From: a virus
Taxonomy: Duplodnaviria > Heunggongvirae > Uroviricota > Caudoviricetes
Virus record (IMG/VR): IMGVR_UViG_2660238446_000006
Length of the DNA: 4,089 bases
Strand: one strand, 5' to 3'
Part shown: positions 1 through 4,089 of the stretch, one piece after another
Numbering within the stretch: position 1 is the first letter of the stretch
How the letters are laid out: every line of letters begins with the position of its first letter
Translations under genes and position numbers: made by a program
Notes under the pieces: model-generated
Databases searched by the model: none
Seen by the model: the letters and a program-made list of their open reading frames with translations, nothing else
Told to the model about the DNA's origin: nothing

Positions 1-386
1 GGCGTAAGGTTTACGCCCGTTTTCTGGATGCGGTGAACTTCGTCAACGGAAACAGCGACGCCGATCCGGAACAGGAGGTGATCAGCCGCTGGCGCATCGA
101 GCAGTGCAGCGAACTGAGCGCGGTCAGTGCCTCTTTTGTGCTGGCCACACCAACGGAGACGGATGGCGCGGTTTTCCCGGGGCGTATCATGCTGGCGAAT
201 ACCTGTATGTGGACTTACCGTTCTGATGAGTGTGGTTACACGGGCAGGGCAGTGGCTGACGAGTTCGACAAACCAACGACGGATATCCGGAAGGACAAAT
301 GCAGCAAGTGTATGCGCGGGTGTGAGTTGCGCAACAATACCGGTAATTTCGGCGGTTTCCTTTCCATCAATAAACTTTCTCAGTAA
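1..386 (+). CDS. L: Tail tip protein L, C-terminal part (copy A, 5' end cut by the window edge)
   Basis: Frame starting at nt 3 is open from the window edge to TAA at 384-386. Translation ...RKVYARFLDAVNFVNGNSDADPEQEVISRWRIEQCSEL...ANTCMWTYRSDECGY...DKCSKCMRGCELRNNTGNFGGFLSINKLSQ* has a C-terminal Cys cluster and an ending like lambda gpL. The track ORF 33..386 is the same frame from an internal GTG. Confidence 0.85.
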   Translation, partial: RKVYARFLDAVNFVNGNSDADPEQEVISRWRIEQCSELSAVSASFVLATPTETDGAVFPGRIMLANTCMWTYRSDECGYTGRAVADEFDKPTTDIRKDKCSKCMRGCELRNNTGNFGGFLSINKLSQ

Positions 387-390
387 ATCC

Positions 391-775
391 ATGACACAGA
401 CAGAATCAGCGATTCTGGCGCACGCCCGGCGATGTGCGCCAGCGGAGTCGTGTGGCTTCGTGGTAAGAACGCCGGAGGGAGACAGGTATCTTCCCAGCGA
501 GAATATCTCCGGTGAGCCGGAGGAACGGTTCCGGATGGCTCCGGAGGACTGGCTGCGGGCACAAATGCAGGGTGAGATTGTGGCGCTGGTCCACAGTCAT
601 CCCGGTGGTCTGCCCTGGCTGAGTGAGGCTGACCGGCGGCTGCAGGTGCAGAGTGATTTGCCGTGGTGGCTGGTCTGCCGGGGGGCGATTCACAAGTTCC
701 GCTGTGTGCCGCATCTCACCGGGCGGCGCTTTGAGCACGGGGTGACGGACTGTTACACGCTGTTCCGGGATGCTT
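391..775 (+). CDS. K: Tail tip assembly protein K, N-terminal part (copy A, cut at the n junction at 776)
   Basis: ATG at 391 lies 4 nt after the L stop. Translation MTQTESAILAHARRCAPAESCGFVVRTPEGDRYLPSENISGEPEERFRMAPEDWLRAQMQGEIVALVHSHPGGLPWLSEADRR...GVTDCYTLFRDA contains a JAMM/MPN motif (HSHPGGLPWLSEAD fits H-x-H-x7-S-x2-D) and the start of an NlpC/P60 domain. The ORF then runs into L-derived sequence after the n. Confidence 0.85.
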
Positions 776-776
776 N
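776..776. other. Single ambiguous base marking a chimeric junction (K mid-gene joined to L mid-gene)
   Basis: Sequence up to 775 matches K (compare 1563-1578 in copy B). Sequence from 777 is L coding sequence, and 804 onward matches window positions 1 onward. Confidence 0.9.
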
Positions 777-1189
777 AGAGTCTGGTCGGCGGAACGGTGG
801 TCCGGCGTAAGGTTTACGCCCGTTTTCTGGATGCGGTGAACTTCGTCAACGGAAACAGTGACGCCGATCCGGAGCAGGAGGTGATCAGCCGCTGGCGCAT
901 CGAGCAGTGCAGCGAACTGAGCGCGGTGAGTGCCTCTTTTGTACTGTCCACGCCGACGGAAACGGACGGTGCCGTTTTTCCGGGACGTATCATGCTGGCC
1001 AACACCTGCACCTGGACCTATCGCGGTGACGAGTGCGGTTATCACGGTCCGGCGGTCGCGGATGAATATGATCAGCCGACGTCCGATATCACGAAGGATA
1101 AATGCAGCAAATGCCTGAGTGGCTGTAAGTTTCGCAATAACGTCGGCAACTTTGGCGGCTTCCTTTCCATTAACAAACTTTCGCAGTAA
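777..1189 (+). CDS. L: Tail tip protein L, C-terminal part (copy B, 5' end cut at the junction)
   Basis: In-frame codons from 779 to TAA at 1187-1189. Translation SLVGGTVVRRKVYARFLDAVNFVNGNSDADPEQ...ANTCTWTYRGDECGYHGPAVADEYDQPTSDITKDKCSKCLSGCKFRNNVGNFGGFLSINKLSQ*. It differs from copy A at about 15 of 117 aligned residues, so it is a different allele. Confidence 0.85.
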
Positions 1190-1194
1190 ATCCC

Positions 1195-1938
1195 ATGACA
1201 CAGACAGAATCAGCGATTCTGGCGCACGCCCGGCGATGTGCGCCAGCGGAGTCGTGCGGCTTCGTGGTGAGAGCGCCGGAGGGGGAAAGCTATTTTCCCT
1301 GCGTGAATATCTCCGGTGAGCCGGAGGCGTATTTCCGGATGGCTCCGGAGGACTGGCTGCAGGCAGAGATGCAGGGAGAGATTGTGGCGCTGGTCCACAG
1401 CCACCCCGGTGGTCTGCCCTGGCTGAGTGAGGCCGACCGGCGGCTGCAGGTGCAGAGTGATTTGCCGTGGTGGCTGGTCTGCCGGGGGGCGATTCACAAG
1501 TTCCGCTGTGTGCCACATCTTACCGGGCGGCGCTTTGAGCACGGGGTGACGGACTGTTACACGCTGTTCCGGGATGCTTATCATCTGGCAGGGATTGAGA
1601 TGCCGGATTTTCATCGCGGGGATGACTGGTGGCGTCACGGCCAGAATCTCTATCTTGACAATATGGAGGCAACGGGTTTTTACCGTGTCCCACTGACAGA
1701 GGCGCAGCCTGGCGACGTGCTGCTGTGCTGTTTTGGTTCATCGGTGCCGAATCATGCCGCCATTTACTGCGGTGACGGCGGGCTGCTGCACCATATTCCT
1801 GAACAACTGAGTAAACGAGAGAGGTACACCGACAAATGGCAGCGACGCACACACTCCCTCTGGCGTCACCGGGCATGGCACGCATCTGCCTTTACGGGGA
1901 TTTGCAACGATTTGGTCGCCGTATCGACCTTCGTGTGA
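1195..1938 (+). CDS. K: Tail tip assembly protein K, complete (copy B): N-terminal JAMM/MPN domain plus C-terminal NlpC/P60-type cysteine peptidase domain
   Basis: ATG at 1195 lies 5 nt after the L stop; stop TGA at 1936-1938; 247 aa. JAMM motif HSHPGGLPWLSEAD at codons 68-81 (nt 1396-1437). Candidate NlpC/P60 catalytic Cys in GVTDCYTLF (codon 121) and His in VPNHAAIYCG (codon 187). Confidence 0.9.
   Translation: MTQTESAILAHARRCAPAESCGFVVRAPEGESYFPCVNISGEPEAYFRMAPEDWLQAEMQGEIVALVHSHPGGLPWLSEADRRLQVQSDLPWWLVCRGAIHKFRCVPHLTGRRFEHGVTDCYTLFRDAYHLAGIEMPDFHRGDDWWRHGQNLYLDNMEATGFYRVPLTEAQPGDVLLCCFGSSVPNHAAIYCGDGGLLHHIPEQLSKRERYTDKWQRRTHSLWRHRAWHASAFTGICNDLVAVSTFV
1817..1824 (+). promoter_or_regulatory. 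Putative Shine-Dalgarno (GAGAGAGG) for gene I, embedded in the 3' end of K
   Basis: Purine-rich GAGAGAGG ends 11 nt upstream of the I start ATG at 1836. The same motif sits upstream of the I starts at 2749 and 3599. Spacing is somewhat long, so the call is tentative. Confidence 0.4.
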
Positions 1939-2291
1939 AAACGGGGGCTGAAGCCATCCGGGCACTGGCCACACAGCTCCCGGTGTTTCGTCAGAAACTG
2001 AATGAGGGCTGGTATCAGGTGCGCATTGCCGGGCGTGATGCAGGCGAAAATGAATTATCTGCCCGTCTTAATGAGCCGCTGGCAAATGGTGCCGTGATCC
2101 ACATCGTGCCGCGTCTGGCGGGAGCTAAAAGTGGCGGTGTGTTTCAGGTGGTGCTTGGGGCGGCGCTGATTGCGGTGGCATGGTGGAACCCTGTGGGCTG
2201 GCTGGGGGCCGCGGCTGTATCGGGCATGTATGCGGCAGGGGCCAGTATGATCCTGGGCGGAGTGGCGCAGATGCTGGCACCGAAAGCCAGG
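1836..2291 (+). CDS. I: Tail tip assembly protein I, N-terminal 152 codons (copy B, 3' end cut by the N-gap)
   Basis: ATG at 1836 is in a different frame from K and overlaps the K 3' end by 103 nt. Translation MAATHTLPLASPGMARICLYGDLQRFGRRIDLRVKTGAEAIRALATQLPVFRQKLNEGWYQVRIAGRD...GGVAQMLAPKAR matches my recollection of lambda gpI. It is interrupted by Ns at 2292. Confidence 0.85.
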
Positions 2292-2312
2292 NNNNNNNNN
2301 NNNNNNNNNNNN
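2292..2312. other. Run of 21 N: assembly gap or junction joining I mid-gene to K mid-gene
   Basis: 21 consecutive n. Upstream is I codon 152; downstream resumes inside the K JAMM motif (..HPGGLPWLSEAD). Confidence 0.95.
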
Positions 2313-2851
2313 GTCATCCCGGTGGTCTGCCCTGGCTGAGTGAGGCTGACCGGCGGCTGCAGGTGCAGAGTGATTTGCCGTGGTGGCTGGTCTGCCGGGG
2401 GGCGATTCACAAGTTCCGCTGTGTGCCGCATCTCACCGGGCGGCGCTTTGAGCACGGGGTGACGGACTGTTACACGCTGTTCCGGGATGCTTATCATCTG
2501 GCAGGGATTGAGATGCCGGATTTTCATCGCGGGGATGACTGGTGGCGTAACGGTCAGAATCTCTATCTTGACAATATGGAGGTGACGGGTTTTTACCGTG
2601 TCGCACTGACAGAGGCACAGCCGGGCGATGTGCTGCTGTGCTGTTTTGGTTCATCGGTGCCGAATCATGCCGCCATTTACTGTGGCGACGGCGAGCTGCT
2701 GCACCATATTCCTGAACAACTGAGTAAACGAGAGAGGTACACCGACAAATGGCAGCGACGCACACACTCCCTCTGGCGTCACCGGGCATGGCACGCATCT
2801 GCCTTTACGGGGATTTGCAACGATTTGGTCGCCGTATCGACCTTCGTGTGA
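2313..2851 (+). CDS. K: Tail tip assembly protein K, C-terminal part (copy C, 5' end cut by the gap)
   Basis: In-frame codons from 2315 to TGA at 2849-2851. Translation HPGGLPWLSEADRRLQVQSDLPWWLVCRGAIHKFRCVPHLTGRRFEHGVTDCYTLF...GDGELLHHIPEQLSKRERYTDKWQRRTHSLWRHRAWHASAFTGICNDLVAVSTFV*. A few substitutions relative to copy B. Confidence 0.85.
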
Positions 2852-3186
2852 AAACGGGGGCTGAAGCCATCCGGGCACTGGCCACACAGCTCCCGGTGTT
2901 TCGTCAGAAACTGAATGAGGGCTGGTATCAGGTGCGCATTGCCGGGCGTGATGCAGGTGAAACCGAATTGTCTGCCCGTCTTAATGAGCCGCTGGCAAAT
3001 GGTGCCGTGATCCACATCGTGCCGCGTCTGGCGGGAGCTAAAAGTGGCGGTGTGTTTCAGGTGGTGCTTGGGGCGGCGCTGATTGCGGTGGCATGGTGGA
3101 ACCCTGTGGGCTGGCTGGGGGCCGCGGCTGTATCGGGCATGTATGCGGCAGGGGCCAGTATGATCCTGGGCGGAGTGGCGCAGATG
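2749..3186 (+). CDS. I: Tail tip assembly protein I, N-terminal 146 codons (copy C, 3' end cut by the N-gap)
   Basis: ATG at 2749 with the same 103-nt out-of-frame overlap with K. Translation MAATHTLPLASPGMARICLYGD...GASMILGGVAQM, then Ns. Confidence 0.85.
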
Positions 3187-3207
3187 NNNNNNNNNNNNNN
3201 NNNNNNN
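3187..3207. other. Run of 21 N: assembly gap or junction joining I mid-gene to K mid-gene
   Basis: 21 consecutive n. Upstream is I codon 146; downstream resumes in K at ..LQVQSDLPWW. Confidence 0.95.
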
Positions 3208-3701
3208 TGCAGGTGCAGAGTGATTTGCCGTGGTGGCTGGTCTGCCGGGGGGCGATTCACAAGTTCCGCTGTGTGCCGCATCTCACCGGGCGGCGCTTTG
3301 AGCACGGGGTGACGGACTGTTACACGCTGTTCCGGGATGCTTATCATCTGGCAGGGATTGAGATGCCGGATTTTCATCGCGGGGATGACTGGTGGCGTAA
3401 CGGTCAGAATCTCTATCTTGACAATATGGAGGTGACGGGTTTTTACCGTGTCGCACTGACAGAGGCACAGCCGGGCGATGTGCTGCTGTGCTGTTTTGGT
3501 TCATCGGTGCCGAATCATGCCGCCATTTACTGCGGTGACGGCGGGCTGCTGCACCATATTCCTGAACAACTGAGCAAACGAGAGAGGTACACCGACAAAT
3601 GGCAGCGACGCACACACTCCCTCTGGCGTCACCGGGCATGGCGCGCATCTGCCTTTACGGGGATTTACAACGATTTGGTCGCCGCATCGACCTTCGTGTG
3701 A
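3208..3701 (+). CDS. K: Tail tip assembly protein K, C-terminal part (copy D, 5' end cut by the gap)
   Basis: In-frame codons from 3210 to TGA at 3699-3701. Translation QVQSDLPWWLVCRGAIHKFRCVPHLTGRRFEHGVTDCYTLF...VPNHAAIYCGDGGLLHH...RAWRASAFTGIYNDLVAASTFV*. Allele distinct from copies B and C. Confidence 0.85.
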
Positions 3702-4089
3702 AAACGGGGGCTGAAGCCATCCGGGCACTGGCCACACAGCTCCCGGCGTTTCGTCAGAAACTGAGTGACGGCTGGTATCAGGTGCGCATTGCCGGGCGTG
3801 ATGCAGGTGAAACCGAATTGTCTGCCCGTCTTAATGAGCCGCTGGCAAATGGTGCAGTGATCCACATAGTACCGCGTCTGGTGGGAGCTAAAAGTGGCGG
3901 TGTGTTTCAGGCGGTGCTGGGGGCGGCTGTTATGGCGGTTGCTATATGGATGCCGGGGGTAGGAATTATGGCGAGTAATCTGCTGTTTTCTCTCGGTGCC
4001 AGTATGACGCTTGGCGGTGTTGCACAGATGCTGGCACCGAAAGCCAGAACTCCCCGCACACAGACAACGGATAACGGTAAGCAGAACAC
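3599..4089 (+). CDS. I: Tail tip assembly protein I (copy D), 3' end runs off the window
   Basis: ATG at 3599, open to the window end (163 codons, no stop). Translation MAATHTLPLASPGMARICLYGDLQRFGRRIDLRVKTGAEAIRALATQLPAFRQKLSDGWYQVRIAGRDAGETELSARLNEPLANGAVIHIVPRLVGAKSGGVFQAVLGAAVMAVAIWMPGVGIMASNLLFSLGASMTLGGVAQMLAPKARTPRTQTTDNGKQN.. Absent from the ORF track because no stop codon falls inside the window. Confidence 0.85.
   Translation, partial: MAATHTLPLASPGMARICLYGDLQRFGRRIDLRVKTGAEAIRALATQLPAFRQKLSDGWYQVRIAGRDAGETELSARLNEPLANGAVIHIVPRLVGAKSGGVFQAVLGAAVMAVAIWMPGVGIMASNLLFSLGASMTLGGVAQMLAPKARTPRTQTTDNGKQN

Follow-up and report, generated by a model that had tools for sequence, protein, structure and literature searches.

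The tail-tip module of bacteriophage lambda is the closest described relative of the genes treated here, which lie on a stretch of 4,089 nucleotides (in the following called the window). In the window L, K and I have the same Pfam content as in lambda, the order L-K-I is kept and the start of I lies within the 3′ end of K. Nucleotide identity is 94–98% with sequenced lambda-like phages, among them vB_EcoS-569R4, Ayreon and mEp460, in whose records L, K and I are annotated as tail tip assembly proteins. A second known system to be considered are the programs which order contigs into scaffolds. The scaffolder SSPACE probably denotes an unresolved negative gap by a single 'n'. Together with GapFiller it belongs to the greedy programs, which can produce false joins and leave N at the joins (PMC5320598). 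We regard it as very probable that the window is a scaffolding artefact induced by repeats, with false joins, and does not reflect a real gene arrangement.

Gene content and layout of the window

The window is identical, byte for byte, to CXFO01000277.1, a complete WGS record of 4,089 bp and a scaffold of the short-read draft assembly GCA_001252515.1. The K protein of its second fragment has been deposited under Shigella sonnei (CST56862.1). Ns are found exactly at position 776 (1 base) and at positions 2292–2312 and 3187–3207 (21 bases each), precisely at the three joins between four fragments, A to D, and the cuts given in the initial annotation are exact in their positions. As this annotation had also noticed from the letters, the gene order recurs four times on the plus strand; by Pfam domains it reads L-K, L-K-I, K-I and K-I. 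The common strand and the regular order are what one would see if the chromosome really carried a tandem array of partial L-K-I duplications, the junction bases being merely masked or unresolved.

Fragment A (1–775) consists of the 3′ 384 nt of L (1–386, stop codon 384–386) and the 5′ 385 nt of K (391–775), recognized by Phage_tail_L (PF05100, E = 2e-56, positions 3–386) and Prok-JAB (1.2e-14). The single N at 776 joins the middle of this K to the middle of the L of fragment B (777–2291). Fragment B comprises a 3′ part of L (777–1189; PF05100, 2.4e-63, 779–1189), the only complete K copy (1195–1938, 247 amino acids, with Prok-JAB and NlpC/P60 domains) and a 5′ part of I (1836–2291; Lambda_tail_I, PF06805, 1.8e-24). 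Both L copies are truncated at their 5′ ends and cover profile positions 78–206 and 69–206 of 206. The gap at 2292–2312 leads from the I of fragment B into the middle of the K of fragment C (2313–3186), a hybrid fragment with a 3′ part of K (2313–2851) and a 5′ part of I (2749–3186). From there the gap at 3187–3207 leads from I into the middle of the K of fragment D (3208–4089), which carries a 3′ part of K (3208–3701) and I from 3599 to 4089 (PF06805, 5.3e-24, 3599–4087), the record ending 151 nt ahead of its stop codon. In the complete K copy a JAB/MPN domain precedes an NlpC/P60 domain (PF14464, 4.6e-14; PF00877, 2.3e-12), and homologs of this K carry the RefSeq name 'C40 family peptidase'. 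Long antisense ORFs (e.g., 716–1516 on the minus strand, 266 amino acids) were rejected as genes; they have no Pfam match and span a join.

The four fragments are similar to each other but not identical. A and B are 88.7% identical over 777 columns, which agrees with the difference of roughly 10% estimated at the outset, and B and C are 97.8% identical and differ by substitutions only, as had been seen. C and D are 97.1% identical over 735 nt and diverge strongly beyond position 3942, and for B and D the identity is 91.4% with 2 gaps. The repeats have lengths of 135–1500 nt and identities of 89–100%, far above chance (BLAST E-values from 1e-68 to 0). With differences of 2.2–11.3%, the copies lack the near-identity of a recent amplification, which speaks against a tandem array.

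Fragments A and D are parts of one locus

The module M-L-K-I-J is found outside the window in intact loci, the window itself being devoid of M and J. All four fragments are co-linear with thousands of E. coli prophages, with one aligned piece per match among the matches listed, and each maps singly to an uninterrupted locus (A with 100%, D with 99.9%, B with 98.6% and C with 98.2% identity). Judged by sequence, each fragment appears to belong to an ordinary M-L-K-I-J tail module. This is in line with the proposal of the initial annotation that contigs of several lambdoid prophages from one enteric genome, here an S. sonnei draft, have been scaffolded at the Ns.

Fragment A is 100% identical to loci of closed Shigella chromosomes (L064–L067 and L069, at 9611–10385), and fragment D matches the closed-chromosome loci L064–L069 in 881 of 882 nucleotides at 10251–11132, overlapping the match of A by 135 nt. 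In six closed chromosomes A and D lie on one contiguous M-L-K-I-J-lom locus, in which M precedes them and J and lom follow (L064–L069, with Phage_min_tail, L, K, I and GpJ domains and Lom). The two fragments cover overlapping stretches of this single locus, and in the window the last 135 nt of A and the first 135 nt of D are the same (100%). The initial annotation had spoken of four allelically distinct fragments. Because A and D represent one allele (in the following AD), contiguous in closed genomes, this number has to be lowered: three sequence types are demonstrable, and the allele count is at least three, not four. The placement of B and C between A and D in a tandem array contradicts the known locus, where A and D overlap on contiguous sequence.

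The exact K protein rebuilt from A and D is present on at least 999 contigs. Most of these are just 2–10 kb long, and the region therefore routinely fragments in draft assemblies. One of the related draft contigs (L010) matches A with 100% identity and breaks off within K, and another one (L002) ends at the same base. One closed chromosome, CP019689.1 (L069), carries a direct duplication of 4,455 bp with 99.96% identity, which comprises IS and M-L-K-I, the copies being 9.4 kb apart. This is a genuine multi-copy case nearby and to this extent favors a tandem array; however, the duplication holds whole genes without any mid-gene join.

Fragments B and C and the rarer allele

Among 5,426 closed E. 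coli genomes, the best match to fragment B is 98.6% identical. A contig of 16.4 kb (L070, carrying what we call the X allele) from an assembly with an adjacent accession prefix is 98.9% identical to fragment B over 974–2291; in closed E. coli genomes its identity is at most 98.8%, against 98.6% for B, neither being perfect. On this contig the X/B-type locus carries a complete lambda-like head and tail module, which begins with portal and continues by way of tape-measure, M, L and K as far as I. The exact K protein of B (CST56862.1/WP_072113685.1) is carried by no contig other than CXFO01000277.1, and a 68-mer specific for B has 0 exact matches in genome_contigs or metagenome_contigs. The K of B with the exchange G196E, which is the version of L070, occurs on a single contig from an assembly with an adjacent accession prefix. 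A K unique to one record in a clonal species could be taken for a chimera, but this reading is weakened by the near-identical G196E protein on the 16-kb contig, which argues that the B-type phage is real but rare. Fragment B appears to belong to a second, rarer lambda-like prophage type.

Fragment C reaches an identity of at most 98.2% in closed E. coli genomes. The first 180 nt of C are the same as the last 180 nt of A (100%); C is of the AD type up to 2629 and of the X type from 2683 on, with zero mismatches to L070 between 2630 and 3186 (557 nt). Both B and C alternate between sequence of the AD type, of the X type and of a third type, and the switches lie at identical stretches of 30–60 nt. 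The AD-type patches in B have X-type sites 30–53 nt away, and B in addition has private SNPs. A complementary mosaic (L071) is found in another assembly of the neighboring-prefix group, and a K of the A+C type is carried by only one contig, likewise from an adjacent-prefix assembly. In an exact look-up of K recombinants built from the variable blocks, two out of ten proteins were present in the collection. The expectation that every allele has its own prophage holds for the A/D allele only; the B type was found solely on contigs of neighboring-prefix assemblies, and C may be chimeric, without a locus to itself.

The patchwork of B and C resembles the mosaicism that arises by recombination or gene conversion between co-resident lambdoid prophages. 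It is possible, though rather doubtful, that B and C are true alleles which arose by gene conversion between the AD-type S. sonnei remnant and an incoming lambda-like prophage, with patches in K and I. If this were true, the neighboring-prefix assemblies would record ongoing recombination between the tail genes of co-resident prophages in a clonal pathogen. However, an assembler which switches its path between paralogous copies would yield an identical pattern.

Considerably less probable is that the window is an artefact in which B and the 3′ half of C, the non-AD alleles, derive from E. coli/Shigella contamination or a mixed culture of these and not from additional prophages of one cell. B and X are nearest to E. 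coli prophages (98.6–98.8%), the closed Shigella loci retrieved are of the AD type only and do not include a prophage of the B/X type, and the K proteins of B, of L070 and of the A+C type are each confined to the one contig named above, in contrast to the AD allele with its wide distribution. Against this, the X type lies on a contig which, by its length and its complete head and tail module, resembles a normally covered resident prophage, and related alleles occur in three neighboring-prefix assemblies, for which a lineage-specific prophage is a better explanation than repeated contamination. Such an origin of the non-AD alleles is therefore improbable, and we prefer additional prophages as their source.

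The joins between the fragments

The reading frame is broken at all three junctions. The reading frame of K in fragment A continues across the N at 776, takes in 11 codons of L out of frame and meets a stop at 808–810. The I genes of B and C both end at a codon boundary, and the K fragments which follow begin mid-codon. The out-of-frame joining was thus confirmed.

We searched for the joins elsewhere. As scans of the collections may miss a literal N in the targets, they tested junctions of defined bases alone. In this form junction 776 had 0 matches in the genome, viral and metagenome collections, and junctions 2292–2312 (allowing a gap of 0–30 bases) and 3187–3207 had 0 matches in viral_contigs; none of the three junctions was present in 70 related loci. 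The joins of K to L and of I to K are accordingly absent from the independent sequences searched, as expected for scaffolded prophage contigs. In CXFP01000092.1, a record with an adjacent accession prefix, a single N stands in for 72 bases of L, and therefore a lone N in these records is a gap marker and not a base call. A literature search for a single-N rule for unresolved overlaps in scaffolders gave nothing usable, and for the accession of the window the literature yielded chance substring hits only.

With three of three junctions made up of N and out of frame, and without a reproducible junction of defined bases in the sequences searched, a real tandem array on what is an isolated 4-kb scaffold without unique flanks can hardly be believed.

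Origin and meaning of the chained arrangement

Our preferred reading remains the scaffolding artefact, and we suggest the following course of events. The S. sonnei genome, or at least the read set, must contain the lambda-type genes L, K and I in no fewer than three similar copies. One of these is the ubiquitous AD locus of S. sonnei, which is located in an IS-riddled prophage remnant and is duplicated in some closed genomes, and the further copies are two or more variants akin to an intact lambda-like prophage that is rarer. The identical stretches common to the copies would exceed the resolution of the assembler, and the region would therefore fall into short contigs. Read pairs bridging the common stretches could then have led a greedy scaffolder to chain four contigs head to tail, writing 1 N or 21 Ns where the contig ends could not be merged. 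If the contigs were mis-chained in this way, the joins of K to L and of I to K would be absent from the cell.

The chained arrangement of L, K and I is most probably an assembly product and not a biological feature. Its importance is one of quality control only, and tail-assembly biology gains nothing new. The record and the proteins deposited from it (CST56862.1/WP_072113685.1 and truncated ORFs over the joins) include gene fragments that are artefacts and alleles that may be chimeric, and pan-genome or prophage counts built on CXFO01000277.1 inherit such fragments. At the same time the window illustrates neatly how short-read assemblies of Shigella and E. coli shatter and mis-chain lambdoid tail genes that are present in several copies.

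In comparison with known systems the window resembles the false joins which repeats cause in scaffolds of short-read drafts: it is a short stand-alone scaffold of multi-copy sequence, the joins are N and the locus coordinates of its pieces overlap. The neighboring-prefix assemblies, which break at the same genes, fit as well. With the greedy scaffolders prone to false joins (PMC5320598) the likeness is one by description. Compared with the lambda module the genes are no different; unusual is only the chain of truncated copies, which most probably stems from assembly and not from biology.

Results

The window is byte-identical to the full record CXFO01000277.1 (NCBI GCA_001252515.1, length 4,089) and thus is an entire small scaffold of a draft assembly. 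It contains exactly three N features, a single N at 776 and runs of 21 N at 2292-2312 and 3187-3207, which separate fragments A (1-775), B (777-2291), C (2313-3186) and D (3208-4089). ORF and Pfam analysis bore out the recurring gene order of the initial annotation, in the form L-K, L-K-I, K-I and K-I, all on the plus strand. Phage_tail_L is found at 3-386 and 779-1189, with the 5′ end missing in both. The sole complete lambda K gene (Prok-JAB and NlpC/P60) lies at 1195-1938, accompanied by a 5′ part at 391-775 and 3′ parts at 2313-2851 and 3208-3701; Lambda_tail_I occupies 1836-2291, 2749-3186 and 3599-4089 and is complete in none of the three. By exact protein look-up the complete K was found on a single contig, CXFO01000277.1 itself; the database entries of the protein, CST56862.1 / WP_072113685.1, name it 'Tail assembly protein [Shigella sonnei]'.

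The K frame of fragment A crosses N776 into 11 out-of-frame L codons and a stop at 808-810, and in fragments B and C the I frame ends at a codon boundary while the following K fragment starts mid-codon. The window junctions cannot be functional. The I frame opens inside the 3′ end of K, with a 103-nt overlap counted from the upstream ATG (1836-1938, 2749-2851, 3599-3701), and gene callers disagree on where it starts, predicting either a 213-aa or a 200-aa protein in closed genomes. The long minus-strand ORFs (110-266 aa, e.g., 716-1516), one of which spans the N776 join, matched no Pfam family and are probably composition artefacts of the G+C-rich tail genes.

Pairwise BLAST gave identities of 88.7% for A/B, 97.8% for B/C (substitutions only), 91.4% for B/D and 97.1% across 735 nt for C/D, which diverge strongly past 3942. 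The final 180 nt of A are 100% identical to the first 180 nt of C, and the final 135 nt of A to the first 135 nt of D, an overlap that the initial annotation had overlooked. In the loci of six closed Shigella chromosomes (L064-L069) fragment A aligns at 9611-10385 (100% in five, 774/775 in L068) and fragment D at 10251-11132 (881/882 in all six); the locus coordinates of the fragments overlap, and A and D form one contiguous stretch within a lambdoid prophage that is degraded and riddled with IS elements; M lies upstream of this stretch, and J and lom follow it. The description of the window as essentially a chain of truncated tail-gene copies was right except for its four distinct alleles, since A and D are one allele, here called AD.

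The K protein rebuilt from A (391-775) and D (3343-3701) occurs exactly on at least 999 contigs, including chromosomes of 4.8-4.9 Mb, under the source names S. sonnei and multispecies Shigella. Most of these contigs are just 2-10 kb long, and the AD region breaks routinely in short-read assemblies. Two independent IMG/VR draft contigs with the A allele (L010 and L002) end at the identical base inside K (…GAGATGCCGG), position 1 of each, a sign that assemblers repeatedly run into a repeat boundary here. In the closed chromosome CP019689.1 (L069) a segment of at least 4,455 bp is genuinely duplicated in direct orientation at 99.96% identity (6873-11327 and 16290-20744); it comprises an IS element and M-L-K-I of the AD allele, and the copies are 9.4 kb apart. 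The AD allele can therefore occur twice; over the 20.7 kb retrieved, the remaining five closed loci showed no such duplication.

Among 5,426 closed E. coli genomes the best matches of B and C reached 98.6% and 98.2%, and the nearest sequenced phages to B are lambda-like siphoviruses (94-98%). Two contigs of neighbouring WGS prefixes are related. CXFP01000092.1 (L070; 16.4 kb) carries a full lambda-like head and tail module ending within I, and its allele, X, has a best match of 98.8%, none perfect, in closed E. coli genomes. CXFS01000313.1 (L071; 1,169 bp) encodes the same K protein as that rebuilt from A and C. In a site-by-site table with L064 as AD and L070 as X reference, A and D are purely AD-type. 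Fragment C is AD-type to 2629 and X-type from 2683, with zero mismatches to L070 over 2630-3186 (557 nt). Fragment B has an X-type backbone with AD-type patches at 1497-1593 and 1770-1781 and private bases at 1515, 1521 and 2045-2057. As B differs around 2045-2057 from the corresponding sites of both C and D, which also differ from each other, the reads must contain at least three copies.

Two of the ten recombinant K proteins were found by exact look-up. Over the four K blocks of window 1195-2044, L071 reads AD, X, AD, X and B reads X, AD, X, AD; both are X-type across the I region. This roughly complementary pattern fits either a switch of phase between two paralogous copies or reciprocal exchange. 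K codon 196 (Gly or Glu; 1770-1781, 2683-2694 and 3533-3544) lies in a three-SNP patch with both states on both backgrounds: in AD-type K, E196 is found on 26 contigs and G196 on at least 999, and in B-type K each on one contig. The patch may mark either a small hot spot of recombination or a point where assemblies repeatedly switch.

SSPACE may write an unresolved negative gap as a single n. In L070 the single N at 9779, inside L, replaces 72 bases present in the window and in a closed genome, so that a lone N in these records marks a scaffold gap rather than an ambiguous base call. This N corrupts the L gene as deposited for the contig (called as 208 aa, no Pfam match). With defined bases, which is what these scans test since a literal N may go unmatched, junction 776 gave no matches in genome_contigs, viral_contigs and metagenome_contigs, and the two N-run junctions, with a gap of 0-30 bases permitted, gave none in viral_contigs. 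None of the three junctions occurred among 70 related loci.

Discussion

We are highly confident that the fragment chain is a repeat-induced scaffolding artefact and not a real feature, which supports the interpretation preferred in the initial annotation, namely several prophage copies scaffolded together. Several similar L-K-I copies would have identical stretches in common, at which the contig assembler would break or bubble; the resulting short contigs could then be linked by read pairs spanning the common stretches, and a greedy scaffolder would chain them and write N wherever merging fails. SSPACE and GapFiller are described, in an account of one widely used bacterial pipeline, as greedy tools that can make false joins and mark joins with N (PMC5320598).

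That the non-AD alleles came from a mixed or contaminated culture is improbable; the 16-kb phage contig seen in an assembly of neighbouring prefix speaks for a prophage resident in the genome. A real tandem array of the fragments has next to no likelihood, given joins that are out of frame, copies that diverge by 2-11%, the proven contiguity of A and D and the absence of any independent junction from the sequences scanned.

Within the scaffolding artefact, the mosaics B and C could have arisen either by natural recombination or by the assembler switching paths. It is possible, but rather doubtful, that the mosaic alleles stem from patch-wise gene conversion among the tail genes of co-resident prophages. 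The L, K and I genes of the window are ordinary lambda genes, and such conversion, even if it took place, would be a known kind of lambdoid mosaicism.
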